The notes: a model not told the origin generated them from the letters alone. A stretch of 64,000 nucleotides of DNA from Gloeobacterales cyanobacterium (GCA_038245785.1 JBBRSB010000003.1:138750-202749), one strand, 5' to 3'. Positions 3,175 to 30,650 are shown, counted from the first letter of the stretch. Made by a program: numbers and translations.

Positions 3175-4356
3175 TTAGCAAACTCTTGCCTGTTGTTGCC
3201 ACCATTGCACCGTCTGTTCGGTGATGATCTCCCAGGCAAACCTCTGCTGGACAGCTTGTTGGGCATTGTTGGCCAGTTTTTGGGCTAGGTCCTGATGAGT
3301 CAAAAGACGCAGAATCGCCCAGGCCAGATGGGCGCCACTCTTGGCCGGGACTTTCAGCCCACTGTATTCGTCGGCAACAATTTCAGCCAGCCCGCCCACA
3401 TCCGACACAACCACAGGCACGCCAGACGCCATCGCTTCTAAGGCGACAATGCCGAACGGCTCGTAGAGACTGGGAAAGGCACCTATATCTGCAACTCGAA
3501 TCAGGTCCTGAAGTTCTTCCTCGGGAAGATAGCCTGTAAAGTGCACGTGCTGATCTACTCTTAATTTCTGGCTACGACGCTGGACCTCTTCTAGATAAGG
3601 GCCACGACCGACGAGTACGGCCTTGGCATTGGGCATATTGCCCAGTAGATGGGGCATGGCCTCTACTAGGTAGCGCGCCCCTTTTTCATGGACCATCCGC
3701 CCGACAAAAAGGATCAGTTTCTGGTCTTCGGTGACATAGCGCTTGCGCACTTGGGCTCTTTCTTCTGGGCTCAAGGGAGGACGGGTATCTGGCTGGATAC
3801 CATTTGGGAAAATGCCGATTTTGGAGTCAGGAACTTGAAATAGCGTCTGGAGTTCTGCTTTCATCGCTTTCGAACAAACGATAACGTTATCGGCTTTATG
3901 GACCAACCATTCTTCCATCTTGTGAATATGACGTTGGAGAGCATGGTGTATCCCATCCATCCGGCCAGATTCTGTGGCATGCAGGGTAGCGCTCAGAGGA
4001 ATCTTCCACTTTTCCTGGAGGGCAATGCCTGCTTCTGCCGTAAGCCAATCGTGACAGTGGATCAGGTCAAAGGGTTGTTCTTGATGGAAGACCGGCGCTA
4101 TTTCCCGCAGCTGCTGGTTAAATCTACGGACCCATCCCAGGAAATCTTCCGTAGGGACGGGTGGGTGCAAAACATAATCGACTTGGACGCCCTTTAGGAT
4201 TTGGGTCTTGCCTTTGCTTTCTTCCTCAGGCGCAACGGTCAGGACATGGACTTGATGACCTTGCGCGACGAAGGATTCACAGAGTCCTTCGCAGTGTCGT
4301 GCCAACCCACCCACAATCCGTGGAGGATATTCCCAAGTAAGTTCAAGAATCCGCAT
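3175..4356 (-). CDS. GT4-family glycosyltransferase (position of the scytonemin-cluster glycosyltransferase)
   Basis: 393 aa. The N-terminus MRILELTWEYPPRIVGGLARH is typical, and the C-terminal EPFGIVALEAMASGVPVVVSDVGGLAEIV matches the E-x7-E region of group-1 glycosyltransferases. It is co-directional with, and downstream of, the scy genes. Confidence 0.85.
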   Translation of the reverse strand: MRILELTWEYPPRIVGGLARHCEGLCESFVAQGHQVHVLTVAPEEESKGKTQILKGVQVDYVLHPPVPTEDFLGWVRRFNQQLREIAPVFHQEQPFDLIHCHDWLTAEAGIALQEKWKIPLSATLHATESGRMDGIHHALQRHIHKMEEWLVHKADNVIVCSKAMKAELQTLFQVPDSKIGIFPNGIQPDTRPPLSPEERAQVRKRYVTEDQKLILFVGRMVHEKGARYLVEAMPHLLGNMPNAKAVLVGRGPYLEEVQRRSQKLRVDQHVHFTGYLPEEELQDLIRVADIGAFPSLYEPFGIVALEAMASGVPVVVSDVGGLAEIVADEYSGLKVPAKSGAHLAWAILRLLTHQDLAQKLANNAQQAVQQRFAWEIITEQTVQWWQQQARVC

Positions 4357-4649
4357 ATCCCAGGCGCAAAAAGTATCTTATTGTGCCATGAGCGTTGTGT
4401 TAAAAAATGTATCGTCATGCTTTTGGGACCCATCGGTTCGGATCTAGTTCTGGCAGGCCCGAGCAGCAAGAACTCAAAATTTATCCAAGTTGACCGCAAA
4501 ATTAGTGCTTGAAAATCATAATCGTACTGAGTATGCTTTAGGCACGGATTTGTAATGGCTTCTGAGAATTCTTTGGTTTATATCCGTTAGTAGGTGGTGG
4601 AGAGAAGTGAAGTTAGTGGACACCTAGGAACTCAAAATTATTGGAGGAA

Positions 4650-4849
4650 ATGCACATCATGACTGACGAGAAAATATTGACCACGGCCGATGATTGCCCG
4701 TGAACAAGCCCCGTTGGCCGGTAATGAACTATCAGCGCGATAGTTCAATGTCGTTTGGGCAAGGGGATGATATGCCTAACTATGAGCCGAATAGCTACGA
4801 TACAGCTCCCAAAGAAGCTCCGGAATATGCTGAGCCCCCGTTCGGCTGA
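4650..4849 (+). pseudogene. Catalase gene remnant (N-terminal codons joined out of frame to a short C-proximal block)
   Basis: Frame A from ATG 4650/4659 reads (MHI)MTDEKILTTADDCP*, resembling catalase N-termini (..KLTTxxGxPV..). Frame B from 4694 reads LPVNKPRWPVMNYQRDSSMSFGQGDDMPNYEPNSYDTAPKEAPEYAEPPFG* (stop 4847-4849). This matches the conserved catalase block LPVN.P....NYQRDG.M......PNYEPNS........EPP. About 400 internal codons and the C-terminus are absent. Confidence 0.6.
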
Positions 4850-4863
4850 CGCTCAGGGAAGCC

Positions 4864-5001: not shown

Positions 5002-7158
5002 TTAAGGATGCTCTTCTTCTCTGTCTCCCTCACGCTGACGCAAGGCGGCATTCTTGACCTTCAGGACTTGAATGCGACTGTTGAAGAAATCGCCGACGTA
5101 CAGCTTACCTTTGTAGTAGTGAGCACCAGCGGTCCAGTTGAAGAGTCCCGGTTCAGGCAGAGGTTGTCCTGGTTGGAGAATGTTCTGGGGACCCGCATTG
5201 GGGACGGGTTTACCAAAGCTCGTCAGGAATTTTCCCTCCTTATTGAAGACTTGGATGCGGCTGTTGATCGAGTCTGCTACATAAACATTGTCGAACTCAT
5301 CCACCTCCACCCCGATCGGCTGATTGAGCTGTCCAGGTCCAACACCCGGCTCCCCAAACGCAAACAGGGGCTGACCTACAGGACTAAGCACTTGGATGCG
5401 GTTGTTTAATTGGTCTCCTACATAAATTTTGCCTGTTGTTGGGGAAACGGAAATCCCAGAGGGTCCTTGAAACTGTCCAAGTTCTTTACCCGGTGAGCCG
5501 ATCTTATTGATCAGGTCGCCATTGCGATTAAAGACCTGGATAAAGTCGCTGCTAAAATCGGTCACGTACAGTTTGCCGCTCTTGTCGAAGGTTAAACCCC
5601 CTGGACCAGAGAAAGCCCGCCCTTCAACCGGAGCTCCAAAACTCCCAAAAGACTTGATCGGGTTACCCTCACGGTCATAAACATTAATCCGGTTGTTAAA
5701 GACATCGCCTACATAGAGGTTGCCTGTTTCGTCGTCGAATTTCAGATCGGCGGGTTCATTGAGCTGTCCTAGACCCGTTCCACTGCTACCCACCGTTTTG
5801 ACAAAGTTGCCGCGCTCATCGAAGACTTGCAGTCGGTCCCCTTCACCATCGCTTACCCAGACCTGTCCGGTGCTGGGCTGCACGGTAATACCCTGAGGAA
5901 GGAAAATATTCGCAGGTCCAAAGCCGGGGCTGCTAATCGTCGATTCGTACTTCAATTTGACCGATTCACTCTTTTTCACCTTGTCAATCTTCACCTGTAG
6001 CACCTGTCCAAGACCGGGACTGGCTCCTTTGTTGGTGATGTAGATGGTGTCATCGGCCGCAATCGCCAGGGCTGTCGGAGCATCCAGTCCATTGCCACTC
6101 AGCAACACCGTTCGCTTACCGTTCGGGGCGATTTTGATCAGCGAACCTTCCATCGCTCCTGGCGTCATTTTCCAGGAAGCTTCGTTATAGATCTGAAGCA
6201 CGTACAGATTGCCCTTGCTGTCGAACTCTAAGTCGCCAAGCTGAGTAAAACCGGTTGCAAAGACTTCCGACTTCCCATCTCTGCCAACGCGGAGGATTCT
6301 GGCTGCACCTTCGGGATAAGGGAATCCTGTAAATTCGCTGGTGTAAACTGCGCCATCAGGGCCGACGGCAACCCCCGTGGGTACTGATTGCACTTCCTTG
6401 GGACCAGGAGGAGGAGCACCGCCGGGAGGAGCTGGTTGGTTAGGGTCAGGTGGGGGGAAAACAGGGTTATCAATGAACTGCGTGGGGAGCCCAAATCCTT
6501 CTGCCTTACCGTCTGTCAAGCGCACCGAGTAAAGCGAGTTACCCCCTGCATCCACAATGTACGCCTCACGGCCCTTGATCGCCACCGCATAGGGATTGGT
6601 GATTTTGCAGCCTAGAAAGTCAACTGCAGTGCACTTATCGGGATCATTATCTAGCTCGTATTGAGCGATGTCCAACAGACTTGTCAACTGGCCTGAACCT
6701 AAGTCGAATTTGTAAAACTGTCCAAAGGTCGGTTCTTGAAAAACGGCTTCGCGGTTTGCTGGGTCTCCTGCAAATCCATAAACTAGGTAGGCATTCCCTT
6801 CGGCATCAAACTGTATGTCCTGGGGACCCGCTCCTTCATTACCACTGGGCTGCAAGGCAAGAGAGGGCAGATTAGAAAAAATCCGCTCTTGCTTACCGTC
6901 TTTAATGCGGGTAATCGCCCCTGTATTGCCTACACAGAGAGGCAAACCTTGGACGCTTGGGGAAGGAATACAAGCGCCGCCGCCGCCAATGCCTGCTTCC
7001 GTTACATAGACGCTGCCGTCGGGACCGATGCCCAAGCCACGAGCGTTGTCTAGCTTGTCAGCAATGACTTTGTAGGTTGCGACTTCCTGCGCCGCGACAG
7101 GATAGGTCGTTGCTAAGCCGAGAGCAAGCAGGGCAACGATTGAGTTCTTGAATTTCAT
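5002..7158 (-). CDS. Secreted ScyD/ScyE-family beta-propeller fused to a six-NHL-repeat (ScyF-like) domain
   Basis: 718 aa with signal peptide MKFKNSIVALLALGLATTYPVAAQE. The N-terminal half has ScyD/ScyE-family signatures (LDNARGLGIGPDGSVYVTEAGIGGGGAC...CVGNTGAITRI). A Pro-rich insert follows. The C-terminal half has six NHL-type blades ending RLQVFDERG, RINVYDREG, FIQVFNRNG, RIQVLSPVG, RIQVFNKEG and RIQVLKVKN. It sits directly downstream of scyC. Confidence 0.75.
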   Translation of the reverse strand: MKFKNSIVALLALGLATTYPVAAQEVATYKVIADKLDNARGLGIGPDGSVYVTEAGIGGGGACIPSPSVQGLPLCVGNTGAITRIKDGKQERIFSNLPSLALQPSGNEGAGPQDIQFDAEGNAYLVYGFAGDPANREAVFQEPTFGQFYKFDLGSGQLTSLLDIAQYELDNDPDKCTAVDFLGCKITNPYAVAIKGREAYIVDAGGNSLYSVRLTDGKAEGFGLPTQFIDNPVFPPPDPNQPAPPGGAPPPGPKEVQSVPTGVAVGPDGAVYTSEFTGFPYPEGAARILRVGRDGKSEVFATGFTQLGDLEFDSKGNLYVLQIYNEASWKMTPGAMEGSLIKIAPNGKRTVLLSGNGLDAPTALAIAADDTIYITNKGASPGLGQVLQVKIDKVKKSESVKLKYESTISSPGFGPANIFLPQGITVQPSTGQVWVSDGEGDRLQVFDERGNFVKTVGSSGTGLGQLNEPADLKFDDETGNLYVGDVFNNRINVYDREGNPIKSFGSFGAPVEGRAFSGPGGLTFDKSGKLYVTDFSSDFIQVFNRNGDLINKIGSPGKELGQFQGPSGISVSPTTGKIYVGDQLNNRIQVLSPVGQPLFAFGEPGVGPGQLNQPIGVEVDEFDNVYVADSINSRIQVFNKEGKFLTSFGKPVPNAGPQNILQPGQPLPEPGLFNWTAGAHYYKGKLYVGDFFNSRIQVLKVKNAALRQREGDREEEHP

Positions 7159-7304: not shown

Positions 7305-8264
7305 TTAGGCAACGGGGAGATAGCTCATTCCCCGTTCAAACGTGGCAAGATTGCCCGCTTTTGCTTCCAGCAAGCGCTTGATATTCATACTTTCAGCGCC
7401 GTAGTCCTCGATTTGAAGTCTGCCGTGGGGCATAGGCTTCTGGAGGTCCCAAAAGGTAATACGGTGCTGAATAAGACCCTGCGCAGCATCATCCCCAAAG
7501 GCATAGGAGCAGGGTACGAGCAGCGTTGGGCAGCGCTGCATAAATTGATAGTCAGGATAGAAATAGTCCTGTTCGATCAGGGAGTACTTACCGAGCGAGT
7601 GGACTCGGAATGTCACCTGCACGGTGCGATTGTACTCGTCCAAAAACTCGCCCGACTGAGCGTTTTTCTCTGAGGTCACATCACCTTGTGGCCGAAGCAA
7701 GTGACACCACTCTTTGTGATTATCTAGATTGCCGATATAGTCGACGGCAAGGTCTAAGGGAGCATCCACGTAGATTGAATCTGTGTCAATCTTGTAGCGG
7801 CCGACGGCAGCAGCGGTATTCCCCTGCTTGCGCTCTAAAATTGCTTTCAGGGAGCGACATTCGGCGGTATGCACCGTGTGCACACCCTCCATAATCATCG
7901 GCGTGCGGCGGCGCGGATCGATAAAGCTGAGCCAATGGAAGTAAACGCCCGCCTCGTCTAGTCCTGGGTGGACATAGCCCGGCGGAAACAGCAGTACGGG
8001 ATAAACCTGAAAGTATTTGTTGTATTCGAAGCCGCAGTGCCACTCGATTCCATAAAAGAGTGGATTTTCAATTTTGCGAACGTGGTAGTAAAGATCGTTT
8101 TGGTAGCCGGAAGCTGTGCCCCGCCAGGTCTGCTCATCAATCTGTTCAATCATGTTGCTGAACAGCGTCCACTCATCCAGGTTCTGCAGTTCGTACAGAT
8201 AGTCGAAGGCTGTTTTGGGATCTGTGGCAATGTAGGCAGAGGTAGCAAATGTATTTTTTTCCAT
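7305..8264 (-). CDS. scyC: ScyC-like scytonemin biosynthesis protein
   Basis: 319 aa (MEKNTFATSAYIATDPKTAFDYL...). It lies between the Leu/Trp-dehydrogenase homolog and the ScyE/F-like gene, which is the size and position of scyC in the reference scyABCDEF operon. The call rests mainly on synteny. Confidence 0.7.
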   Translation of the reverse strand: MEKNTFATSAYIATDPKTAFDYLYELQNLDEWTLFSNMIEQIDEQTWRGTASGYQNDLYYHVRKIENPLFYGIEWHCGFEYNKYFQVYPVLLFPPGYVHPGLDEAGVYFHWLSFIDPRRRTPMIMEGVHTVHTAECRSLKAILERKQGNTAAAVGRYKIDTDSIYVDAPLDLAVDYIGNLDNHKEWCHLLRPQGDVTSEKNAQSGEFLDEYNRTVQVTFRVHSLGKYSLIEQDYFYPDYQFMQRCPTLLVPCSYAFGDDAAQGLIQHRITFWDLQKPMPHGRLQIEDYGAESMNIKRLLEAKAGNLATFERGMSYLPVA

Positions 8265-8278: not shown

Positions 8279-9388
8279 TTACTCCTGCACAAGTTGTCTA
8301 CGTTCAAGGTTGGGAAGGGCATACGAGGGCAGCAGATGCCGTCCAATTCCTTCGCTTTTTGATTTTTCAATCAGCTTTTTAGCCAAGTGTTGTGCAGCCT
8401 CCTGGGTAGTTATTTCAGCTTGTTCGGCGTGCTCAAAGATCTCTAGCAAGGTGCCGTAGATATTGCTTAGCTGCGTTTGGACGCGCCCTTCGTGGTAGCC
8501 AATCATTTCGTTGTAGACATTGATCAAACCGCCCGCATTAATCACATAGTCTGGGCAGTAGAGAATATTCCTAGCCGTGAGCAGCCGACTGTGTTTTTGC
8601 TCATCATCCAGTTGGTTGTTGGCAGCACCGGCGACGATAGAAGCTTGCAGGCGCGGAATTGTCGTATCGTTCAGCACCCCTCCCATTGCACAAGGAGAGA
8701 AGACATCAACAGATAGGTCATAGATGGCATCAGGATCGATGATGGTGGCTCCATAGAGGTCAGCCATTTCCTGCGCTCGTTCCTGTCGCACATCGCTGAC
8801 AAAAAGCTCGGCTCCCCGCTCTGAGAGAAGTTGGCACAGGACTTGACCGACATTGCCCAACCCCTGCACCGCCACTTTTAACCCTTCAAAGCTTTGCCGC
8901 TGCAGACGGAATTCGACAGCGGCCTGCATGCCGAGCAGCACTCCTGCCGCCGTTAAGGGAACAGGACCGCCAGATTCTGCCTTCACGCCCATTACATAAC
9001 TGGTTTCACGGTGAATTTGATGGACGTCACGCAGCGAAATATTGACATCCTGGCCCGTAATAAACTGCCCTTTGAGCCGCTCTATAAATCGGCCATAGGC
9101 TCTAAGTAGGCGGTCATTTTTTTGTTTTGGATCGGCAATGATCACGCCTTTGCCACCGCCCACCGGAATACGGGCACAGGCCGCTTTGTAGGTCATACCC
9201 CGACTAAGGCGCAGGGCATCACGCAGGGCAGCATCCTCGCTGGCATAGGGGAAAAGGCGCGTGGCGCCCATCGCTGAACCGAAGTCTGTGTTGTGCAGCG
9301 CAATGATCGCTTTGAGACCAGTCGCTGGGTCGTGGCAAAAGAGAACCTGCTGATGCTCTGTTTCTCTGGTCGTTTCAAACAGTTTCAC
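8279..9388 (-). CDS. scyB: ScyB-like Glu/Leu/Phe/Val-dehydrogenase family enzyme (tryptophan dehydrogenase)
   Basis: 369 aa with the family motif RIPVGGGKGVI and the Rossmann motif AVQGLGNVGQVL. It is positioned between scyA and scyC. Confidence 0.8.
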   Translation of the reverse strand: MKLFETTRETEHQQVLFCHDPATGLKAIIALHNTDFGSAMGATRLFPYASEDAALRDALRLSRGMTYKAACARIPVGGGKGVIIADPKQKNDRLLRAYGRFIERLKGQFITGQDVNISLRDVHQIHRETSYVMGVKAESGGPVPLTAAGVLLGMQAAVEFRLQRQSFEGLKVAVQGLGNVGQVLCQLLSERGAELFVSDVRQERAQEMADLYGATIIDPDAIYDLSVDVFSPCAMGGVLNDTTIPRLQASIVAGAANNQLDDEQKHSRLLTARNILYCPDYVINAGGLINVYNEMIGYHEGRVQTQLSNIYGTLLEIFEHAEQAEITTQEAAQHLAKKLIEKSKSEGIGRHLLPSYALPNLERRQLVQE

Positions 9389-9473: not shown

Positions 9474-11372
9474 TTATTCTGTAAGCGGAAAAGAAACCTG
9501 TTTAGCCGAACTTGTAGGTTCTCTAAGCTGGATGAGGCTATCGTTCCGGCCTCGGGACGGGGCAGGTCGATCGGGGTCGATCAGCACATCTATAACAAAG
9601 GGTCCCGTCGCTGACATGGCCTGCGTGAGCGCCTGCTCCAAGTCACTTTCCTGATGAACCCGAATACCGTTCGCGCCCATACCTTGGGCAATCGCCACAA
9701 AATCAGTGTCTGGAATCATCGCATCAGCACCCTTGAGTCCAAGCATGGCCATCCCTTGAACGCACATGTTGTAGCGAGCATCATTGAGAACAATCCAAAC
9801 GGCTGGGACTTGATGCTTGACAGCGGTGCTAATTTCGTTGTTCATCAGCATTGAGCCATCCCCTGTAATCACTACTGCCTTACGTTTAGCAGCTTGAGCG
9901 AGACCGACCACGCCTGTAACCATATGACCCATGGCGCCGAGCCCGGTACTGACGCGATAGCGCCGTGGGTGAGAGAAGCGGAGTCGATGGGTCGCCCAAG
10001 TAAAGGAGTTGCCCGACTCCGCTAGCACAATCGCATTACTGCGGTCGATAACGAGTCGCTGGATCACATCCATCAATACTTCTGGGCGGACTAAGGAGCT
10101 ATGGGAGCCATTGCTGCTGGGCAGGGTGGCGACATGAGGACGGGGAAATGTCGGTGCTGGTTGGCTCGCTGGATCAGGGAAATGCTGCAGCAGCTCTGTC
10201 ATAAACAAATTAATCTCAGCCTGGATTGGCAGGGTCGGGGCCAGCGGATAGGCCACCCCTGGCACATTGGGGTCAATATCGACATGCAGAAAGCCGCCCG
10301 ACGGAACCATGGCGGCACTCCAAAAAGAGGTGGGCTCACCCAAGCGGGTACCAAGAACAAGAATGTGCGCTGGAGGCTGTTCGCGCATGTAGGTCAGAAC
10401 GGACTCATGCCCTCCCACTCCAGTCACGCCAACAAACTGAGGATGGTCTTCTGGGAAAATGCCTTTGCCACGCGGAGAACACATGACCGCCGCCCCAGTC
10501 CGTGCTGCCAGCTGGCGAATTGGTTCTGCGGCTAGCCGTGCACCAAAGCCGAGCCAGATAGCAAAGGGGGCAGAGGCTAAAATCTGCGCACAGTGGGCGA
10601 TGGTTGACGCACTGGGTATGATTTGAAACTGATGAGGCTGAGCAGTCTCAAGGGTTGGGAAGGTTGGGACGTGAGCAGGGGAAACCAGACTCGACTGCAC
10701 CCCGGTTGGAATGCTGATGTGCGCGACAAAACTTCCTGGTTGAGCCAGACCCAGTGCCAACCGGCGGGCAACTTGGGGCAACTCTTCTGGCGATTCTAAG
10801 GTCATGGCATAGTCAAAAAGCGCACCAGCGGTGAAGATGCCGCTATGAGGCATGCTGTGAATACTGGTTTCCTGGATCGCACCTCGTCCTCGTTGAGCGG
10901 CTGAAGTACAGGCCGACAGGAGAATTACTTTTGCGCCTTCCCCCCGCGCCGCTAGCAATCCCGTAAGCGCATTGGTAATTCCTGGACCGGCTGTGGTGAA
11001 TACGACCGTAGGTAAATCGCTGGCAAAATGGGCTTCGGTGGCAGCAAAGGCCGCACCCCCTTCATGGCGACAGTGAATGACAGAAATCTTTTGACTGTGA
11101 GAGAGGGAAAGCCAGAGAGAGGCGACGGCTCCCCCAGCGACCCCAAAGGCCGACTGAACACCCAAGTTCTCCAGCACGTTTACCAGTGCATTAGTGACTG
11201 TTAAAGGAGCAGCTAGCGGTGTGAAGCCAACTGCCATTTCGTCGGATTGAGACTGATGACTGTTATCTCTTTCGGAAATAATGCGATCGGCCACTACGGA
11301 TGGGACGGGCGCAGCAGCAATGTCAAGTCTGGGAACAGCTTCAGCGAATTTGTGAGATTTTTGAGTACTCAT
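9474..11372 (-). CDS. scyA: ScyA-like thiamine-diphosphate-dependent acyloin-forming enzyme (acetolactate synthase homolog)
   Basis: ORF 9474..11423 trimmed to ATG 11370-11372 (MSTQKSHKF...), which is preceded by AGGAG. It has ThDP-enzyme features (GVAGGAVASLW, TAGPGITNALTGL, ITGDGSMLMNNEISTAV). It is the first gene of the leftward operon. Confidence 0.8.
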   Translation of the reverse strand: MSTQKSHKFAEAVPRLDIAAAPVPSVVADRIISERDNSHQSQSDEMAVGFTPLAAPLTVTNALVNVLENLGVQSAFGVAGGAVASLWLSLSHSQKISVIHCRHEGGAAFAATEAHFASDLPTVVFTTAGPGITNALTGLLAARGEGAKVILLSACTSAAQRGRGAIQETSIHSMPHSGIFTAGALFDYAMTLESPEELPQVARRLALGLAQPGSFVAHISIPTGVQSSLVSPAHVPTFPTLETAQPHQFQIIPSASTIAHCAQILASAPFAIWLGFGARLAAEPIRQLAARTGAAVMCSPRGKGIFPEDHPQFVGVTGVGGHESVLTYMREQPPAHILVLGTRLGEPTSFWSAAMVPSGGFLHVDIDPNVPGVAYPLAPTLPIQAEINLFMTELLQHFPDPASQPAPTFPRPHVATLPSSNGSHSSLVRPEVLMDVIQRLVIDRSNAIVLAESGNSFTWATHRLRFSHPRRYRVSTGLGAMGHMVTGVVGLAQAAKRKAVVITGDGSMLMNNEISTAVKHQVPAVWIVLNDARYNMCVQGMAMLGLKGADAMIPDTDFVAIAQGMGANGIRVHQESDLEQALTQAMSATGPFVIDVLIDPDRPAPSRGRNDSLIQLREPTSSAKQVSFPLTE

Positions 11373-11637
11373 CCTTGCTTTTCTCCTGATGAAATCTGGA
11401 CTGCAATAAACTTTGAGAGGCACTAAAACAGCCAGTCTTTTAAACTTGATGAGTCAACAAAAATAGTCATCAAATACCGATAGAAATCAGTTTAAAACAC
11501 ATAAATAATGCATTGAGATTCACAGAGTGACTATGCAAAGCAAAACATTCTGTATCATCTTTTTTCATCTGTAGAGCTCAATCACAACTCAGTAACAGTA
11601 GCAATTGAAGTTTAATCAGACTTACAAAGCAGCACAA

Positions 11638-11671
11638 GGACATTTTTTTTGACATCTCTAAAAAAATGTCC
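11638..11671. promoter_or_regulatory. 12-bp perfect inverted repeat in the scyA/trpE divergent control region
   Basis: ggacattttttt (11638-11649) and aaaaaaatgtcc (11660-11671) flank a 10-nt spacer. The repeat lies inside the ~670 bp AT-rich gap between divergently transcribed scyA and trpE. Confidence 0.4.
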
Positions 11672-14337: not shown

Positions 14338-14425
14338 GTTTAATAAGTCCTCTGTCTCTGAAAGAAAGAGCGCTCTAATCTTCTTCCCGTCATCCTCCTT
14401 CCTCTCTCCTTGCTGAGGTGCAGCC

Positions 14426-18642: not shown

Positions 18643-18673
18643 TCTGCCATCTGTTTCACAGGAGCGCACAAGG

Positions 18674-23778: not shown

Positions 23779-23821
23779 TCGAAAAAATGGACGCTTTGTC
23801 GAAAACATGTCGAAAAAATGG
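23779..23821. promoter_or_regulatory. Three direct copies of TCGAAAA(A/C)ATG(G) in the eboA-eboB spacer
   Basis: tcgaaaaaatgg at 23779-23790, tcgaaaacatg at 23799-23809 and tcgaaaaaatgg at 23810-23821. They lie in a 230-bp gap inside an otherwise tightly packed cluster. Confidence 0.35.
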
Positions 23822-23996
23822 TCCTTGCACTGTCTTTGAAGTCTTATTAAGCTCTGGCTTAGGGAAATAAGGCAAAAGCTCAACAGCTCTGACCCTATAC
23901 ACAGGTTCTTAGGAGCTTGCAGGTGACAAAGGCTGGTTTTGCCTGTTCTTTTCCCAATTTAGGCGCATAGTTCCTCGCACTTATTCAGGTCATCCC

Positions 23997-24935
23997 ATGC
24001 CAGATAGCGCTCCTCCCATCTCCCGGCCCAAGATCTGGATTGATCCACACATCCATATGACGTCCCGTACGACCTATGACTACCGTTTGATGAGGCAGCA
24101 AGGAATCGTGGCTGTTATTGAGCCGTCCTTTTGGCTGGGGCAGCCTCGCACCAACGTCGGGACATTTCAGGACTACTTCAGCAGTCTGGTGGGCTGGGAA
24201 CGCTTCCGAGCCGGACAGTTTGGCATTCGCCACTACTGCACCATCTGCCTCAACCCAAAGGAAGCGAATAATCCTGCGATTGCCGATGAGGTAATGGCCA
24301 TGCTTCCTCTCTATCTATGCAAGGAGGGCGTTGTGGCCGTTGGTGAAATTGGCTACGACTCGATGACAGCGGCAGAGGACAAGTATTTCAGACTGCACTT
24401 AGAGATGGCAAAGGAATTCAAAAAGCCTGTCCTGGTCCACACGCCCCATCGGAACAAGAAGGAAGGAACCTTGCGCAGCTTAGAAGTCTGCCTGGAGCAT
24501 GGCATCGATCCAAAGCTGGTAGTGATAGACCATGCCAACGAAGAGACTGTCCAGGCCATTCTCGATCGAGGCTTTTGGGCAGCGTTTTCGATCTATCCAA
24601 AGACCAAGATGGGCAATGAACGAATGACTGAAATTGTTCGGCAGTATGGTTCCGAGCGAATCATCGTCAATAGTGCAGCCGACTGGGGAATCAGCGACCC
24701 TCTGGCTGTACCGAAAACGGCTCAACTGATGCTGGAGCGAGGGATTCCTGAGGCCGATGTGACGGCAGTCTGCTATGGCAACGCGCTGGCAGCCTATAGC
24801 CAAAGCGGTGAAATGAGCGAAGCGGACTGGCTCAGTCCAGAACCCGTGGACCAACGGCAGCTTTTCGATGGCAACTCAGTGCTTCGGGGCCAGGAACCGA
24901 TAACACAAGAAGCAGAGTCGCTCGTTATTGTCTAA
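23997..24935 (+). CDS. eboB: EboB, TatD-family metal-dependent hydrolase
   Basis: 312 aa with WIDPHIHMTSRT (HxH metal site), VAVGEIGYD, VLVHTPH and VIDHAN, which are typical TatD-like amidohydrolase-fold motifs. Confidence 0.8.
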   Translation: MPDSAPPISRPKIWIDPHIHMTSRTTYDYRLMRQQGIVAVIEPSFWLGQPRTNVGTFQDYFSSLVGWERFRAGQFGIRHYCTICLNPKEANNPAIADEVMAMLPLYLCKEGVVAVGEIGYDSMTAAEDKYFRLHLEMAKEFKKPVLVHTPHRNKKEGTLRSLEVCLEHGIDPKLVVIDHANEETVQAILDRGFWAAFSIYPKTKMGNERMTEIVRQYGSERIIVNSAADWGISDPLAVPKTAQLMLERGIPEADVTAVCYGNALAAYSQSGEMSEADWLSPEPVDQRQLFDGNSVLRGQEPITQEAESLVIV

Positions 24936-25013: not shown

Positions 25014-25925
25014 ATGATTTCAGCGCAGAGTACGACAAACCGCTTGGTGGCCTATCTTCAGATGATGCGTCCTGCCAATATTGTGACGGCGTGGGCAGAT
25101 ATTCTGGCAGGCTATGCGGCAGCGGGTTTAGGAGCTATTACTCCTGACCCTACGGCTATCTACCCCTTGCTCTGGCTGCTGTTAGCCACAACCGGGCTGT
25201 ACGGAGGCGGGGTTGTATTCAACGACGTGTTCGACGCCAAGCTGGATGCCCAAGAGCGTCCCGAGCGTCCGATTCCCAGTGGCCGCAGTTCGGTGCAAGA
25301 AGGCATCGTTCTGGGCATCGGTTTACTGACCCTTGGCATTGTGGCAGCGGCCCAGGTATCAGCGATCAGTGCGGGGATAGCAGTCGCGATTGCCCTGGCA
25401 GCGCTGCTATACGATTCCGTGGGTAAACACCACGCTCTGATAGGCCCCCTGAATATGGGGCTGTGTCGGGGTGGAAACCTGTTGCTGGGCGTGAGCGCCG
25501 TGCCTGTAATGCTCCAAGAGCGCTGGTTTTTGGCAGCGATTCCGGTCTTATACATTGCGGCGATTACGCTGATCAGTCGCGGTGAAGTGCATGGTGGAAA
25601 TCGAATGGCTGGACAAGTTTCTCTGGTGGCCTTGGCCCTGGTGTGCGCCGGGTTAATTGGGCTAAGCCTGTTGCCCAGCTATGGACTACTGCCGATGCTG
25701 CCCTTCGGGGTGTTTTGGGGAATATCGGTGATTCCAGCCTTTGTCAAAGCTAGCCGTGAACCCAGTGCTGCCCTAATTCGCCATGCAGTCCGCTCGGGAG
25801 TAATCTCCCTGATCGTCCTCAATAGTGCCCTTGCAGCAGGCTTCAGCCACTGGCTTTATGGTTTAGCGGTTTTAAGCTTGTTGCCCCTATCTCGATTTTT
25901 AGCTAAACAATTTGCGGTGACCTAG
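25014..25925 (+). CDS. eboC: EboC, UbiA-family prenyltransferase
   Basis: 303 aa and polytopic. The motif NDVFDAKLDAQERPERPIPSG is the UbiA Asp-rich motif (NDxxDxxxD). Confidence 0.85.
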   Translation: MISAQSTTNRLVAYLQMMRPANIVTAWADILAGYAAAGLGAITPDPTAIYPLLWLLLATTGLYGGGVVFNDVFDAKLDAQERPERPIPSGRSSVQEGIVLGIGLLTLGIVAAAQVSAISAGIAVAIALAALLYDSVGKHHALIGPLNMGLCRGGNLLLGVSAVPVMLQERWFLAAIPVLYIAAITLISRGEVHGGNRMAGQVSLVALALVCAGLIGLSLLPSYGLLPMLPFGVFWGISVIPAFVKASREPSAALIRHAVRSGVISLIVLNSALAAGFSHWLYGLAVLSLLPLSRFLAKQFAVT

Positions 25926-27134
25926 ATGTATCTCAGCCTGAGCAGTCCGCCCCAGTTCCTAGAATCAACATTGAAACCGCTGCAGCAGTCTATAACGGTT
26001 CGGTTTGACTATTCAGTGCACTTCACCCATGGCCTGTTTCAGTTACACAATCCCCTGCTGGCAGAGATATTAGCGGCTGAGCAGACAACGCAACCAGCTG
26101 CCGTACTGGTCATTATCGACGGCGGTCTCCTATCATCCCAACCGCAACTACTAGAGAAAGTAACAGCCTACGCTGAGCATTACCAACAGGCGATTTGCCT
26201 CAAAGCCGTGCCCTTGGTCGTAGTCGGGGGAGAGGCAGCCAAGAACGATCCAGCCTGTGTGGAGCAGATTCAGCGACTGATCAGTGAGGCCCGCTTATGC
26301 CGGCATTCCTATGTCGTGGTGATTGGGGGTGGAGCTGTTTTAGATATGGTCGGTTATGCTGCAGCCACTGCCCATCGCGGAGTGCGTCTTATCCGAGTGC
26401 CAACGACAGTACTGGCCCAAGATGACTCTGGAATCGGCGTAAAAAATGGGGTTAATGCCTTTGGCAAGAAGAATTTCCTAGGTACGTTTGCTCCACCCTA
26501 TGCCGTTATTAATGACGCGGACTTTCTGCGAACGCTGGGTCAGCGGGATTGGATAGCCGGAGTAATAGAAGCGCTTAAAGTAGCGTTGATTAAAGATGCG
26601 GACTTTTTTCAGTACATCGAGGCCAACACAAACGCCTTGGTCAAGCGTGAACTGTCGGTCATGCAACAGGTCATCTATCGCTCTTGCCAACATCACTTGC
26701 ATCATATCGGCAGCTATGGCGACCCGTTTGAAATGGGTTCATCGCGCCCCCTCGACTTTGGGCACTGGGCCGCCCATCGCCTGGAGCATTTGACGAACTA
26801 TCGTCTCCGACATGGCGAAGCAGTAGCGATCGGTATTGCCCTCGATAGCACCTATGCCTGCTTTGCCGGACTGCTGCCAGCAGAAGACTGGACCCGGATC
26901 TTAAATGCATTGCAGGCACTGGGATTTGCACTTTATGCGCCGGAATTGGGCGCATTTTCAGAACAACCAGAGCATCCGCAGTCGATTTTTCAGGGGCTGA
27001 CTGAATTTCGAGAACATCTAGGCGGAGCGTTAACCCTAATGCTATTGGCTGGTATAGGCACTGGGGTGGAAGTGCATCAAATCAACCTGGAACTATATCA
27101 ACAGGCGATTACCTATTTGAAAGCACTGAAATGA
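25926..27134 (+). CDS. eboD: EboD, 3-dehydroquinate-synthase-like sugar phosphate cyclase
   Basis: 402 aa with VIGGGAVLDMVGYAAATAHRGVRLIRVPTTVLAQDDSGIGVKNGVN and HGEAVAIG. Its ATG abuts the eboC stop. Confidence 0.85.
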   Translation: MYLSLSSPPQFLESTLKPLQQSITVRFDYSVHFTHGLFQLHNPLLAEILAAEQTTQPAAVLVIIDGGLLSSQPQLLEKVTAYAEHYQQAICLKAVPLVVVGGEAAKNDPACVEQIQRLISEARLCRHSYVVVIGGGAVLDMVGYAAATAHRGVRLIRVPTTVLAQDDSGIGVKNGVNAFGKKNFLGTFAPPYAVINDADFLRTLGQRDWIAGVIEALKVALIKDADFFQYIEANTNALVKRELSVMQQVIYRSCQHHLHHIGSYGDPFEMGSSRPLDFGHWAAHRLEHLTNYRLRHGEAVAIGIALDSTYACFAGLLPAEDWTRILNALQALGFALYAPELGAFSEQPEHPQSIFQGLTEFREHLGGALTLMLLAGIGTGVEVHQINLELYQQAITYLKALK

Positions 27135-27669
27135 AGACCTAGCACAGGCAGGAGACCTCATGAGCGCTAACGACCGATTTCATCTCACTTACTGCACAAA
27201 CACCGATTCCGGCGAGACGTGGCAAGCGGTTTGGACCAATCTGCAGCGACCTATGCCCGGGCTAAAGCAATCACCATCACCGGACCAACCCTTTGGCATT
27301 GGCTTGCGCTTAGCGAATCTGGCCAGTCAAGAACTTCTGGTCAATAGACGGCTTACTGACCTCAAAGCGCGGCTGGCGGCAGAAAAGATCTATGCTTTCA
27401 CCCTGAATAGTTCTCCCTATGGCAGCTCCCATCATCACGTGAGAAGAGATCAGGTCTATAAACCGGATTGGAGCACAGTAGGACGGCTCTTACACACGAG
27501 GCGATTGGCACGGATTCGAGCAAAGCTGCTACTGGACGGAACGGAGAGCCATATTTCCAACCTACCGCATTCCTGCAAGCCCTGGTTTTTCGGCATCCCA
27601 GAAGCGCGGGCTCTGGTATTTCAGTCGAGTACTGTGGCCCTCACGACCTTAGTCATGAATCTGGTCAAT
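26862..27669 (+). repeat. Tandem duplication unit, copy 1 (eboD 3' end + spacer + diverged eboE-like 5' part)
   Basis: It begins at tttgccggactgctgccagc (26862) and ends at ...atgaatctggtcaat (27669). It is colinear with 27670-28489. Confidence 0.85.
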
Positions 27670-27990
27670 TTTGCTGGACTGCTGCCAGTGGAAGACTGGG
27701 TGCGGATCTTGAAAGCATTGCAGGCACTGGGATTTACGCTACACGTGCCAAAATTGGGCGCATTTTCAGAAGAACCAGAGCGTCTGCAGTCGGTTTTCCA
27801 AGGGCTGACTGAATTTCGAGAACATCGAGGGGGAAAGTTAGCCCTAAGGCTATTGGCCGGTATCAGCGCTGGGGTGGAAGTGCATCAAATCAACCTGGCC
27901 CTGTATCAGCAGACGATTGCCTGTTTGCAAGTACTGGACCAGAGACCTCTAGAGTTTCCAGCACAGCGCAGGAGATCTCATGCGTATTAA
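27160..27990 (+). CDS. Chimeric ORF: diverged EboE N-terminal ~170 aa fused to a diverged EboD C-terminal ~90 aa
   Basis: 276 aa. Residues 1-170 (MSANDRFHLTYCTNTDSGETWQAVWTNLQ...) parallel EboE 1-170 (MRINDRFHLTYCTNTHPGETWQAVWTNLQ...). From FAGLLPVEDWVRILKALQALGF... it parallels the EboD C-terminus (FAGLLPAEDWTRILNALQALGF...VEVHQINLELYQQAI). It keeps an AGGAG Shine-Dalgarno sequence. It may be a duplication by-product (pseudogene) or a retained gene. Confidence 0.6.
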   Translation: MSANDRFHLTYCTNTDSGETWQAVWTNLQRPMPGLKQSPSPDQPFGIGLRLANLASQELLVNRRLTDLKARLAAEKIYAFTLNSSPYGSSHHHVRRDQVYKPDWSTVGRLLHTRRLARIRAKLLLDGTESHISNLPHSCKPWFFGIPEARALVFQSSTVALTTLVMNLVNFAGLLPVEDWVRILKALQALGFTLHVPKLGAFSEEPERLQSVFQGLTEFREHRGGKLALRLLAGISAGVEVHQINLALYQQTIACLQVLDQRPLEFPAQRRRSHAY

Positions 27991-28489
27991 CGACCGATTT
28001 CATCTTACCTACTGCACAAACACTCATCCTGGCGAGACGTGGCAAGCGGTTTGGACCAATCTTCAGCAATATTTGCCTGGGCTGAAGCAGTCGCTATCAC
28101 CGGATCAACCGTTTGGTATTGGCTTGCGCTTAGCAGATCTGGCCAGTCGAGAACTTTTGGTGGGCGACCGACTGGCGAAGCTTAAAGCGTGGCTGGAGAC
28201 AGAGAATCTCTATGTCTTTACCCTGAATGGTTTTCCCTACGGCAGTTTCCATCACCAAGTCATAAAAGACCAGGTCTATGCTCCAGATTGGACCACGGTC
28301 GAGCGGCTAGAGTACACAAGGCGATTGGTAAAAGTTCTAGCAGAGCTGCTGCCGGAAGGGATGGAAGGCAGTATTTCCACCCTACCGCTCTCCTACAAGC
28401 CTTGGTTTTTCGGTACGCCAGAAGCGCTGGATCCCGTATTTCAGTCGAGTGCCGTTGCCCTCGCGGCCTTAGTGATAGATCTGGTCAAT
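27670..28489 (+). repeat. Tandem duplication unit, copy 2 (diverged eboD 3'-like part + spacer + authentic eboE 5' part)
   Basis: It begins at tttgctggactgctgccagt (27670) and ends at ...atagatctggtcaat (28489). The unit is ~12 bp longer than copy 1 because of indels around the former eboD stop and spacer. Confidence 0.85.
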
Positions 28490-29227
28490 CTCCAGGCGAA
28501 AACAGGCAAACTAATTCATCTGGGCCTCGAACCGGAGCCAGATGGACTTTTGGAAAACACGCAGGAAGTGGTGACCTTTTTCGATCGCTGGCTTTTGCCC
28601 TGCGGGAGCACAGAACTTATGCAGCACTTCGGGATCTCTAACGACAAGGCTCTAGCGTGTCTGCGCAACCACCTCCGAGTCTGCTACGACACCTGTCACT
28701 TTGCCGTGGAATATGAAGAGCCTGAAATCGCCCTACGCCAGTTGCAAGAGGAAGGAATTGGAGTCAGCAAAATTCAACTCAGTTCAGCGGTGCGCATTCC
28801 AATTCCGGCTGAGCTAGCAGAACGTCAAGCGATTTTACAGCGACTACAGCCCTTTGCCGAATCGACCTATCTGCACCAGGTGATCGCCAGACAGCCAGAC
28901 GGCAGGCTGAAAACAGACGGCAGGCTGAAACGGTACCGTGATTTAGAGCAAGCGCTACCAGAATTCCTGACAACAGACGCAGCGGAGTGGCGTACCCATT
29001 TCCATGTCCCCATTTTTCTCCAAGACTATTCGCTGCTGCAATCAACGCAGGAACATCTTGTAAAAACCTTGTCTTATCTGCAGGCATTTCCCCTCTCTAG
29101 CCATCTCGAAATCGAAACCTATACCTGGGACGTATTGCCCGCCGACATCAAGTTTAATCTCGCCCACTCGATTCAACGCGAGTATGACTGGGTGCTGCAG
29201 CAATTGCGGATTCCAATCGTGGTTTAG
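27980..29227 (+). CDS. eboE: EboE, TIM-barrel (xylose-isomerase-like) protein
   Basis: 415 aa at the position and size of eboE. N-terminus MRINDRFHLTYCTNTHPGE; internal HLGLEPEPDG and CYDTCHF are typical of the xylose-isomerase-like TIM-barrel fold. Confidence 0.75.
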   Translation: MRINDRFHLTYCTNTHPGETWQAVWTNLQQYLPGLKQSLSPDQPFGIGLRLADLASRELLVGDRLAKLKAWLETENLYVFTLNGFPYGSFHHQVIKDQVYAPDWTTVERLEYTRRLVKVLAELLPEGMEGSISTLPLSYKPWFFGTPEALDPVFQSSAVALAALVIDLVNLQAKTGKLIHLGLEPEPDGLLENTQEVVTFFDRWLLPCGSTELMQHFGISNDKALACLRNHLRVCYDTCHFAVEYEEPEIALRQLQEEGIGVSKIQLSSAVRIPIPAELAERQAILQRLQPFAESTYLHQVIARQPDGRLKTDGRLKRYRDLEQALPEFLTTDAAEWRTHFHVPIFLQDYSLLQSTQEHLVKTLSYLQAFPLSSHLEIETYTWDVLPADIKFNLAHSIQREYDWVLQQLRIPIVV

Positions 29228-29276
29228 TCCGTCACAGCCAATCTACACCTAACCTTTTCACCCAAGCTCCTAACCG

Positions 29277-30650
29277 ATGATGCAAAGAACCGCTGTCCTG
29301 AATGTTGTTGGACTGACTCCCGCTTGCCTCGGTGCTCATATGCCGAAGCTGACAGCTTGGGCAGTACGGGGGCAACAAGCGAACATCACACCGATGCTGC
29401 CAGCGGTGACCTGTAGCGTTCAAGCGACCTATCTCACCGGCAAATATCCCAATGAGCACGGCATTGTCGCCAATGGTTGGTACTTTCGAGATGAGTGTGA
29501 GGTGAAATTTTGGAGACAGTCTAATGCTCTGGTACAGGCTCCAAAAATCTGGGAGATTGCCCGAGAAAGGGATCTCACCTTCACCTGCGCCAACTTGTTC
29601 TGGTGGTACAACATGTACTCCTCCGTCGACTACGCCGTCACACCACGCCCTATGTATCCAGCAGATGGGCGTAAGCTACCGGATATCCATACCCACCCAG
29701 CCGCTATCCGTCCTAAGCTTCAAGAGGAACTTGGGCCATTTCCTTTATTCAAGTTCTGGGGGCCGGCAACGACGATTGAATCCAGTCAGTGGATTGCGAA
29801 TTCAGCAAAGTGGATTGAAACAAACGCCAGTCCGACGCTCTCGCTGGTATACCTACCCCATCTGGACTATTGCACCCAGAAAGTGGGCTCTACTCCAGCG
29901 CAGGACCTCCAGGAAATCGATGCCGTAGTCGGAGATCTGATTGAGTTCTACGAGGCAAGAGGGGTACAGCCTGTCGTCCTCTCTGAATATGGCATTACGC
30001 CCGTTTCTCAGCCAGTGCACCTGAACCGAATGCTGCGCTCAGCGGGATTCCTCCAAGTTCGGACAGAGTTGGGCTTAGAACTACTGGATGCAGGGGCTAG
30101 TCAAGCGTTTGCTGTTGCTGACCATCAGCTAGCCCATGTCTACATCAATGACCCCACCATTTTGGAGCAGGTGAAGGCACTTTTAGAGAAAACGCCAGGC
30201 GTAGCAAGGGTATTAGATGAGGCTGGCAAGCAGGAACAGTATCTAAACCACGAACGTTCAGGTGAACTAGTGGTCATCGCCGAACCGCAAGCCTGGTTCA
30301 CCTACTACTACTGGCTTGACGACACCAAGGCTCCCGACTTCGCCCGAACCGTCGATATTCACCGAAAACCAGGATATGACCCTGTGGAACTGTTTTTCGA
30401 TCCCCAAATTCGTTTCCCCAAGCTAAAGGTTGCGAAAACGTTGCTCAAGCGCAGATTAGGAATGCGATCGCTGATGGACCTGACTCCGCTGAATGCCGAT
30501 TTGGTGCGCGGATCTCACGGCCATCTACCAGGTTCATCAAGAGACTGGCCAATGGTGATTACACAGAGGTCAGAGCTCTTACAAAGTGCCTCTATCTCTG
30601 CTGTCGATGTCTGTTCCCTGATTCTGAATCATTTGAACTTGAGCCCCTAA
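29277..30650 (+). CDS. eboF: EboF, nucleotide pyrophosphatase/phosphodiesterase (alkaline-phosphatase superfamily)
   Basis: 457 aa with VLNVVGLT...MLPAVTCSVQATYLTGKYPNEHGIVANGW (Thr nucleophile region) and VRGSHG near the C-terminus. Confidence 0.8.
   Translation: MMQRTAVLNVVGLTPACLGAHMPKLTAWAVRGQQANITPMLPAVTCSVQATYLTGKYPNEHGIVANGWYFRDECEVKFWRQSNALVQAPKIWEIARERDLTFTCANLFWWYNMYSSVDYAVTPRPMYPADGRKLPDIHTHPAAIRPKLQEELGPFPLFKFWGPATTIESSQWIANSAKWIETNASPTLSLVYLPHLDYCTQKVGSTPAQDLQEIDAVVGDLIEFYEARGVQPVVLSEYGITPVSQPVHLNRMLRSAGFLQVRTELGLELLDAGASQAFAVADHQLAHVYINDPTILEQVKALLEKTPGVARVLDEAGKQEQYLNHERSGELVVIAEPQAWFTYYYWLDDTKAPDFARTVDIHRKPGYDPVELFFDPQIRFPKLKVAKTLLKRRLGMRSLMDLTPLNADLVRGSHGHLPGSSRDWPMVITQRSELLQSASISAVDVCSLILNHLNLSP

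Follow-up and report, generated by a model that had tools for sequence, protein, structure and literature searches.

A complete scytonemin locus with a shared sequence box, a scyE-scyF fusion and a conserved chimeric ebo gene in a chromosome of apparent Gloeobacterales affiliation

We analyzed a 64,000-nucleotide stretch of DNA from a Gloeobacterales cyanobacterium (GCA_038245785.1, JBBRSB010000003.1:138750-202749; hereafter the window), which carries a scytonemin locus of about 25.6 kb (5002-30650) combining the biosynthetic core, an aromatic amino acid biosynthesis (AAAB) supply module, a two-component system and the ebo genes in one block. The explanation that best accounts for the data, to which we assign a probability of roughly 0.68, is that selection maintains a complete scytonemin locus here, made up of three transcription units under box-linked control, with a derived layout, residing in a deep-branching host and acquired anciently. 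The open reading frames (ORFs) from scyEF through eboF are all intact (19/19). Every gene that is essential in Nostoc punctiforme (scyA-C, scyE, eboA, B, C, E and F, and the regulator) is present and intact, and trpE and scyA, B, C, E and F have ratios of nonsynonymous to synonymous substitution rates (dN/dS) of 0.03-0.12 over dS values of up to ~1.5.

Gene identities were taken from an ORF map combined with NCBIfam and Pfam family scans, with bit scores compared to curated cut-offs (Table 1). scyA on the minus strand and trpE on the plus strand diverge out of a 673-bp hub (11424-12096) that is AT-rich, GC content being 0.42 in 11001-12000 as opposed to ~0.53-0.57 in the flanks. A first-pass annotation, made by a model from the sequence, had scyA-scyB-scyC, a scyE/F-like gene and a GT4 glycosyltransferase gene running leftwards from this hub, and trpE(G)-trpC-trpA-trpB-DAHP (3-deoxy-D-arabino-heptulosonate 7-phosphate) synthase-tyrA running rightwards; the ORF map and family scans bore out the places and strands of both sets, the second occupying 12097-19777 (+). 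Its description of the cluster as more compact than the N. punctiforme reference also held. The core and the AAAB module thus flank the hub, followed on the AAAB side by the regulators and then by the ebo genes, which lie past the regulators and not behind the core.

The same architecture recurred in other assemblies, whose homologous loci we number with the prefix L. The core and trp side was repeated in independent assemblies L001, L002, L005 and L099, and the tyrA-regulator-ebo side in independent assemblies L007, L009, L011, L012 and L013 (L007 and L008 represent GCA_965194235.1 and a Logan assembly; L009 and L010, two Joint Genome Institute (JGI) metagenomes). Two sister lineages have both halves on a single contig: L002 with L012 (JGI, 184 kb) and L005 with L011 (GCA_965190705.1, 49.6 kb). 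For a broader comparison we used a census of 80 GTDB r232 species-representative genomes (loci L016-L095), found by a ScyC-alignment search and viewed for 10 kb on either side of scyC. The census holds no near relative of the window (best ScyC 78% identical), only more distant clusters. Divergent trpE and scyA genes were present in 10 of the 80 census loci, with ebo behind the core in 6 of those where the flank was visible; within this 10-kb view the gene order of the window was not demonstrable in any of the 80. The first-pass annotation had taken the divergent layout as new, but it corresponds to a published type: Garcia-Pichel et al. (2019) described three architectures, the third of which (pattern 3; Lyngbya PCC 8106, Cyanothece) is transcribed in opposite directions from the boundary of core and AAAB genes (PMC6529634).

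The core enzymes are recognizable by several measures. ScyC is 65-78% identical to the ScyC proteins of 80 named genomes, and scyA and scyB lie adjacent to scyC in the window and are syntenic with it in all loci examined. ScyA (likely start giving 632 aa by gene call, with the 5' end at 11372) scores better on the ScyA model than on the ScyA-related model and falls inside the ScyA clade of a tree rooted on Escherichia coli IlvI. Identities to the proteins of N. punctiforme NIES-2108 are 61% for ScyA, 62% for ScyB, 69% for ScyC, ~45% for ScyE and 54% for ScyF. A comparison with the N. punctiforme Scy proteins and families had been proposed as a check on the first-pass annotation; the ScyC score, the placement of ScyA and the synteny of the scy orthologues all came out in its favor. 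Purifying selection on scyC is strong, with dN/dS of 0.03-0.08.

Homology to characterized enzymes suggests how the locus would work; the roles of ScyA, ScyB and ScyC are established, and scyE is essential while scyD and scyF are not (PMC4870267). In unit 1, scyA-scyB-scyC-scyEF, read leftwards, ScyB would deaminate tryptophan, ScyA would couple indole-3-pyruvate with p-hydroxyphenylpyruvate, and ScyC would cyclize and decarboxylate to give the monomer. Unit 2, trpE/G-trpC-trpA-trpB-aroG-tyrA, read rightwards, would raise the supply of tryptophan and p-hydroxyphenylpyruvate, while the trpD and trpF functions would have to be supplied by housekeeping copies elsewhere in the genome. Unit 3, comprising eboA and eboB-C-D-(chimera)-E-F, would export the monomer to the periplasm, a step for which all ebo genes are essential (PMC6282210), and there a single secreted ScyE-ScyF fusion lacking a PEP-CTERM anchor would carry out the last step. 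The AraC-type regulator and a shortened kinase, encoded between units 2 and 3, probably activate all units through a shared sequence box, and the pigment would be expected to be made under ultraviolet A (UV-A) control.

This box emerged from an alignment of the hubs of four lineages, in which two conserved blocks proved to be inverted copies of one 18-mer, TCAAAA[AG]AWWT[GT]TC[CA]TTG, which we call box M. The window has one copy per transcription unit (Table 1), each oriented alike relative to its downstream gene (scyA, trpE or eboB). With three or fewer mismatches allowed, three matches were found against 0.11 expected, a number reached in 0 of 100 shuffles, and a weight-matrix scan of the 64 kb returned only these three copies at 24 bits or more, the next best site scoring 18. 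The copy ahead of eboB is kept at the matching position in L007, L009, L011 and L012. In ~47 of the 80 census loci scyA is preceded by a variant of the box, most often TCAAAAGATTTTTCATTG, and variants were also seen ahead of trpE in other divergent clusters and ahead of eboA in Trichocoleus. A perfect 12-nt inverted repeat, GGACATTTTTTT-N10-AAAAAAATGTCC (11638-11671), overlaps copy 1, so the site on the scyA side could be palindromic, with two half-sites. On the simplest reading of this distribution, box M would be where the AraC-type scytonemin regulator, an essential protein (PMC9127174), binds, which makes the box a candidate operator; in the literature searched we found no published operator for this regulator. 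Box M would thereby offer a concrete operator candidate for scytonemin clusters generally.

The presumed regulators are themselves conserved. The response regulator is 48% identical to the one encoded beside scyA in N. punctiforme NIES-2108, both regulator and kinase are syntenic in all relatives (L007, L009, L011 and L012), and their dN/dS is 0.14-0.31. The first-pass annotation had called a PAS kinase and a receiver-AraC regulator here; both genes were confirmed, but Pfam detects no PAS domain in the kinase. At 410 aa, as opposed to ~640-670 aa in Nostoc, it retains HisKA and HATPase_c only, whereas the Nostoc kinase carries three PAS domains, and the signal sensed may therefore differ from that in Nostoc. 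The spacer between the kinase gene and eboA (22024-22839, 816 bp) is AT-rich (GC 0.39) and has no box M. Several blocks within it, GGTTAACACAYGATT and AGATTAACTAC among them, are conserved in five lineages and may serve as promoters for eboA and the regulator operon.

The scyE/F-like gene is an in-frame fusion of scyE and scyF. Within its 718-aa product the NCBIfam ScyD/E domain spans aa 30-389 and the ScyF domain aa 394-704; the protein starts with a Sec-type signal peptide at its N-terminus and continues with the ScyE propeller (~aa 30-390), a linker of ~8 aa and mature ScyF (~aa 400-705). Alignment to unfused relatives indicated that the reading frame was kept while the charged tail of ScyE, the intergenic spacer and the signal peptide of ScyF disappeared, leaving the one N-terminal signal peptide. 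Among the best 120 of 848 homologues, a fused full-length protein was encoded by one other cluster (P0001, 720 aa, 95% identity), and none of the 80 named-genome loci has the fusion; independent assemblies L099 and L100 also carry it. The nearest unfused relatives (78-80% identity) encode a ScyE of 420 aa and a ScyF of ~352 aa from genes 110-130 bp apart. Both halves of the fusion are constrained (dN/dS 0.05-0.06, dS ~0.45).

The fused protein also lacks a membrane-sorting tail: its C-terminus, ...KVKNAALRQREGDREEEHP, has neither a PEP motif nor a hydrophobic helix, and the unfused relatives L002 and L005 are likewise without a PEP-CTERM tail. Nearly all other clusters have a VPEP motif, helix and basic tail on Scy proteins. 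In N. punctiforme, scytonemin requires the exosortase CrtB, and ScyD, ScyE and ScyF count as putative PEP-CTERM proteins (PMC12188702). A tail-less natural ScyE-ScyF fusion thus provides a direct test of the need for the exosortase in the last step and is relevant to the heterologous production of scytonemin, which has stalled. In an unrelated cluster, L018 (Leptolyngbyaceae SMAG_U16502), ScyE and ScyF are also without PEP-CTERM tails, ScyF ending in a PAPEET repeat, so loss of the anchor is not unique to the clade of the window. No second scyD/E copy was found in the 64 kb. A Chroococcidiopsis match to the ScyD/E family (P0025) was rejected as a cluster gene, being an orphan paralogue that lies far from all scy clusters (L014; CP097480.1, 1423021-1444205). 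That protein is 53% identical to the ScyE part of the window fusion; its neighbors are dnaK/dnaJ and iron-sulphur genes, with a tyrosinase gene 9 kb off.

The supply module contains putatively dedicated copies of trpE/G, trpC, trpA, trpB, aroG and tyrA, with eboD as the equivalent of 'aroB', and its TrpE is 66-67% identical to the counterparts in other scy clusters. Immediately behind the tyrA stop codon we found the first 31 codons of a chorismate synthase gene, 87% identical in amino acid sequence to the N-terminus of L011 AroC (tblastn, and DNA alignment). Sister lineages L011 and L012 keep tyrA-NmrA-aroC-trpF ahead of the regulator, whereas NmrA-aroC-trpF is missing there from the window, L007 and L009; the aroC relic is the scar of an NmrA-aroC-trpF deletion, so the compactness of the module was derived by deletion. 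Searches of the 64 kb (tblastn) returned no trpD, trpF, NmrA-like gene or tyrosinase. The trpD gene is missing from the cluster in the whole clade, sister lineages included, because contig arithmetic leaves the trpB-aroG interval without room for it. The first-pass annotation had listed trpD, tyrP, dsbA, aroB and a separate scyD as missing; all of these but aroB were indeed absent from the window. We reject the claim for aroB, since the window eboD is the orthologue of the gene so named after tyrA in N. punctiforme NIES-2108 (L045), the two sharing 63% identity over 384 aa. Nor are the true absences peculiar to the window: tyrP is absent from the Anabaena, Nodularia and Lyngbya clusters and frnE/dsbA from two of them (Soule et al. 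2009, PMC2726228), and scyD is dispensable and missing in other strains too.

The ebo genes eboA through eboF occur in order, as the first-pass annotation stated, but it overlooked a seventh ORF (27160-27990). This ORF is the product of an old tandem duplication of ~810 bp, the two units of which (26862-27660 and 27670-28480) repeat with a period of 808-820 nt and 76-86% identity. The duplication runs from about codon 312 of eboD to about codon 167 of eboE and yields a full eboD, then an in-frame chimera of the start of eboE and the end of eboD, and then a full eboE. Intact chimera orthologues of 275-276 aa, 75-100% identical, fall into five 90%-identity clusters, and wherever examined (L007, L009 and L013) the gene lies between eboD and eboE; it is not present in sister lineages L011 and L012. 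Pairwise dN/dS is 0.20-0.34 in both halves of the chimera, compared with 0.09-0.17 for eboD and eboE (dS 0.35-0.63). By these substitution rates the chimera appears to be a gene under purifying but relaxed selection, and we would guess that it serves as an adaptor retaining interface parts of both parents. An AlphaFold2 model built on a 35-sequence alignment had a mean predicted local distance difference test score (pLDDT) of 54, with the C-terminal part below 50, and was therefore too poor for a fold search. The chimera represents a dated, conserved case of gene birth by tandem duplication in an operon of obscure biochemistry.

Some of these features could be read as decay. The cluster might be a silent relic or direct the synthesis of some other product, the losses of trpD, of the PEP-CTERM tails and of most of the kinase sensor region, together with the chimeric ORF, then marking degeneration or a change of product. 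Several strains with full clusters were pigment-free in culture (PMC2726228), the kinase is truncated relative to that of Nostoc, an aroC pseudogene remnant is present and the chimera model is poor. Decay is difficult to reconcile with an unbroken run of 19 ORFs, the low dN/dS of the scy genes over dS up to ~1.5, a chimera whose length has been kept in five lineages, and conserved regulatory boxes. Because every gene essential in N. punctiforme is intact and the scy genes are strongly constrained, we regard a relic as improbable. The suggestion that a modified pigment is made finds no support either way.

The rest of the window is ordinary chromosome, encoding pheT, gyrA, ssb, dapF, ABC transporters, pilT, ruvC, ppa and pfk. 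Each of GyrA, RuvC and Ppa shares its 90%-identity cluster with a protein from an NCBI metagenome-assembled genome (MAG) labeled 'Gloeobacterales cyanobacterium' (MGA7951916.1, MGA7953968.1 and MGA7954887.1). Outside its own clade (94-96% identity), the window GyrA is at most 71% identical to anything, the best named matches being Gloeobacter violaceus (71%) and G. kilaueensis (69%), and it is 66-69% identical to the GyrA of all other cyanobacteria. In a neighbor-joining (NJ) GyrA tree rooted on E. coli GyrA, the 16 sampled crown sequences formed one clade, with the window clade outside it, in 299 of 300 bootstraps; the latter joined the Gloeobacterales group (including ES-bin-141 and ES-bin-313) in 134 of 300 and was sister to the crown in 140 of 300. 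The chromosome thus looks like that of a deep-branching lineage affiliated with Gloeobacterales. In the literature searched we found no report of a scytonemin cluster in this order: Gloeobacter violaceus, used as a Scy-less outgroup, lacks ScyC (PMC9796282), and Ca. Sivonenia lacks ScyC and EboA-C (PMC10438808).

An apparently deep host might be an artefact of a chimeric contig or wrong labels, the true source being a Leptolyngbya- or Oculatella-like cyanobacterium. The closest named ScyABC set does belong to an Oculatellaceae MAG, and MAG labels are fallible, two Gloeobacterales GyrA entries carrying Gemmatimonadaceae or Anaerolineae names. The typical cyanobacterial scy-ebo cluster L041 (JAAUUT010000037.1) is deposited as 'Candidatus Gracilibacteria bacterium SU_1_2', almost certainly a binning or label error. 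In the window, however, the cluster is physically joined to pheT, gyrA, dapF, pilT, ruvC, ppa and pfk, and the linkage of ebo, ABC transporter and pheT genes recurs in independent assemblies L007 and L013, which argues against a chimeric contig. Leptolyngbyaceae GyrA is no closer than that of other cyanobacteria (67-68%), and the crown excludes the window clade in nearly every bootstrap. We consider an artefactual host very improbable.

How the cluster came to this lineage is addressed by comparing Scy and GyrA divergence. In a concatenated ScyABC tree the window clade paired with a 12-kb Oculatellaceae MAG contig in 200 of 200 bootstraps, and in the ScyA tree rooted on E. coli IlvI it was nested within the other sequences in 155 of 200. 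The smallest Scy distance from the window clade to other lineages is 0.41, within the range seen among crown lineages (mean 0.38, maximum 0.52), unlike GyrA, for which the nearest crown sequence is 0.38 away although crown sequences differ from one another by at most 0.31. These comparisons lean towards ancient transfer, with the window lineage and a crown-group cyanobacterium as partners; the cluster was probably acquired from the latter and not inherited from the cyanobacterial root. Composition was considered as a sign of recent horizontal transfer and gave no signal.

Alternatively, the cluster may have come down by vertical descent from the ancestor that Gloeobacterales-like cyanobacteria share with the crown; scytonemin synthesis would then be as old as the crown and have been lost many times. 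The window clade is among the most divergent Scy lineages (mean distance 0.50, compared with 0.35-0.48 for others) and falls in an early-branching grade with pattern 3 genomes, held to be ancestral by Garcia-Pichel et al. (PMC6529634). It was sister to all other ScyA sequences in 45 of 200 bootstraps, the cluster occurs in several lineages within the clade that have diverged to dS of up to 1.2-1.7, and no compositional sign of transfer is apparent. Vertical descent fits poorly with the nested ScyA placement, the invariable Oculatellaceae pairing, a Scy divergence no deeper than among crown lineages and the lack of ScyC in Gloeobacter violaceus (PMC9796282) and Ca. Sivonenia (PMC10438808). Because the trees are NJ trees with a distant outgroup and the binning of the Oculatellaceae contig is uncertain, we judge vertical descent unlikely but give it appreciable weight. 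Were it true, the sunscreen would date to the last common ancestor of living cyanobacteria, and the 'scytonemin clade' used as a time marker after the Great Oxidation Event (PMC6529634, PMC9796282) would be wrongly delimited. The two dating arguments in those studies assume that scytonemin is limited to one crown clade, that Gloeobacter is a Scy-less outgroup and that no horizontal acquisition took place. A full cluster in a Gloeobacterales-affiliated lineage conflicts with one of these premises under either origin, ancient transfer remaining the one we prefer.

Several observations weigh against our overall interpretation. ScyA, ScyB, the EboA family model and the kinase all score under NCBIfam curated cut-offs; we accept the orthology of ScyA and ScyB nonetheless, given their synteny in all loci and the placement of ScyA within its clade. 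Anabaena PCC 7120, Nodularia and Lyngbya PCC 8106 have similar clusters and made no scytonemin in culture (PMC2726228). The window has neither trpD nor trpF, and the requirement for CrtB in N. punctiforme by implication extends to the PEP-CTERM tails on its ScyD, ScyE and ScyF proteins (PMC12188702); such tails are absent here. The window scan detected no box M upstream of eboA or of the regulator genes, a sigma-70 scan of the hub performed at chance (2 sites, 1.7 expected) and no terminators were found. The inferred transfer has left no trace in composition (third-position GC 0.55-0.57 in the cluster, 0.52 in housekeeping genes) and relies on NJ trees with a distant outgroup and on an Oculatellaceae contig of uncertain binning, while the taxonomy combines submitter labels with one NJ gene tree in which the Gloeobacterales link was recovered in 134 of 300 bootstraps.

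Table 1. Positions of the scytonemin locus genes, sequence boxes and adjoining features in the window.
Feature	Coordinates	Strand	Evidence or remark
GT4 glycosyltransferase gene	3175-4356	-	GT4-family matches only, all far under cut-offs
scyE-scyF fusion, 718 aa	5002-7158	-	ScyD/E 408 bits (cut-off 80); ScyF 456 bits (cut-off 350)
scyC, cyclase/decarboxylase	7305-8264	-	NF035924 577 bits (cut-off 400)
scyB, tryptophan dehydrogenase	8279-9388	-	NF035922 573 bits (cut-off 600)
scyA, thiamine diphosphate-dependent acyloin synthase	9474-11423	-	NF035923 960 bits (cut-off 1020)
Box M copy 1, TCAAAAAAAATGTCCTTG on minus strand	11635-11652	-	~210-260 nt upstream of scyA
Box M copy 2, TCAAAAAATTTGTCCTTG	11898-11915	+	182 nt upstream of trpE ATG
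trpE-trpG fusion, anthranilate synthase clade 3	12097-14337	+	TIGR01815 1171 bits
trpC	14426-15277	+	NCBIfam equivalog model passed
trpA	15264-16142	+	NCBIfam equivalog model passed
trpB	16169-17410	+	NCBIfam equivalog model passed
aroG-type DAHP synthase	17578-18642	+	NF009933 667 bits
tyrA, prephenate dehydrogenase	18626-19777	+	PRK11199-type TyrA 273 bits; Pfam PDH_N, PDH_C
aroC relic, first 31 codons of chorismate synthase	19784-19876	+	Directly after tyrA stop
Response regulator, receiver and AraC-type helix-turn-helix, Npun_F1278 orthologue	19891-20688	-	Pfam Response_reg, HTH_18, HTH_AraC
Short sensor histidine kinase, 410 aa	20791-22023	-	HK_scytonemin best match, 400 bits (cut-off 865)
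eboA	22840-23766	+	EboA domain NF035938 164 bits (cut-off 50); EboA family model 301 bits (cut-off 320)
Box M copy 3, TCGAAAAAATGGTCCTTG	23810-23827	+	eboA-eboB spacer, 170 nt upstream of eboB
eboB, TatD-like	23997-24935	+	NCBIfam/Pfam
eboC, UbiA-like	25014-25925	+	NCBIfam/Pfam
eboD, sugar-phosphate cyclase (dehydroquinate-synthase-like)	25926-27134	+	'aroB' of Nostoc cluster
Old tandem duplication, ~810 bp	26862-28480	+	Repeat families D1-D3
Chimera eboE'(1-167)::eboD'(~312-402), 276 aa	27160-27990	+	EboE profile 1-156; dehydroquinate synthase (DHQS) profile 307-398
eboE, TIM barrel	27980-29227	+	TIM_EboE 491 bits (cut-off 250)
eboF, type I phosphodiesterase	29277-30650	+	Pfam Phosphodiest 194 bits

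At the borders of the locus, the GT4 gene that the first-pass annotation had placed inside the cluster is probably not part of it. Its product is 27% identical over 210 aa to the glycosyltransferase of the Nostoc cluster, and no such gene was found downstream of scyF in any relative checked (L002, L005 and L100), that position being occupied by an OPT transporter and a Uma2 gene in L002, a LysR gene in L005 and DNA resembling window 34-35 kb in L100. Low similarity and lack of synteny together speak against it as a cluster member. In L100, a 95% relative, the segment just 3' of scyEF (5846-6403) matches window 33954-34187 (95%) and 35095-35203 (89%), near Uma2 genes; in the window this counterpart (33954-35203) sits past ebo. 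The match suggests that the cluster borders have been rearranged or that they carry a repeated element associated with Uma2. The stretch just past eboF is flanked by two genes for Uma2-family putative endonucleases (31277-31861, minus strand, and 34369-35019, plus strand), and in L007, L009 and L012 this position is taken by PIN and toxin-antitoxin genes. An Rfam scan of the window revealed neither a leader nor a riboswitch ahead of trpE; its sole match was one tRNA gene (62946-63017, minus strand).

Seen against published clusters, much of what appears distinctive has precedent. The joining of ebo to the cluster had been presented as a novelty by the first-pass annotation, but Soule et al. 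(2009, PMC2726228) showed that Anabaena, Nodularia and Lyngbya have the five 'satellite' genes, since renamed ebo, within the cluster; a position within the cluster is the rule in most cyanobacteria, and N. punctiforme is the exception. Given these precedents, neither the divergent layout nor the joined ebo genes nor the absence of scyD, tyrP and dsbA is new. The present layout probably arose from pattern 3, followed by the NmrA-aroC-trpF deletion, the in-frame fusion of scyE and scyF and the tandem duplication that created an additional ebo gene. In practical terms, the locus offers a smaller natural gene set for pathway engineering, without scyD, trpD, tyrP, dsbA or the cluster glycosyltransferase.

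The reference cluster of N. punctiforme ATCC 29133 (Npun_R1276-R1259, with regulators Npun_F1277/F1278 and a distal ebo cluster, Npun_F5232-F5236) shares with the window scyA, B, C, E and F; trpE/G, C, A and B, aroG and tyrA; the AraC-type regulator and kinase; eboA, B, C, E and F, with its 'aroB' as eboD (63%); and a box M variant upstream of scyA. The window differs in having three transcription units instead of one co-directional operon and in its contiguous ebo genes, and it has no scyD, trpD, tyrP, dsbA or NpR1270-type glycosyltransferase. Its scyE and scyF are fused and without PEP-CTERM, its kinase is shorter by a PAS region of ~250 aa, and it carries the extra chimeric ebo gene.

Pattern 3 clusters are the nearest in layout. 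They share with the window the divergence of core and AAAB genes and early-branching Scy proteins, and in Aphanothece hegewaldii (L082) and Chroococcus FPU101 (L086) also the absence of scyD and the order trpE-C-A-B. The published pattern 3 order is regulators, AAAB, core and satellite genes, with ebo behind the core, whereas in the window ebo follows the regulators on the AAAB side; the window supply module, moreover, lacks trpD and ends in aroG-tyrA. Compared with the generic ebo operon (Yurchenko et al. 2016; Klicki et al. 2018), the window has the same A-B-C-D-E-F order and gene families but adds a seventh gene between eboD and eboE and a regulator-type box between eboA and eboB. The features that set this locus apart from known systems are where its ebo genes lie, a supply module that is reduced and bears a deletion scar, a tail-less scyE-scyF fusion, a conserved chimeric gene and an apparently deep-branching host.

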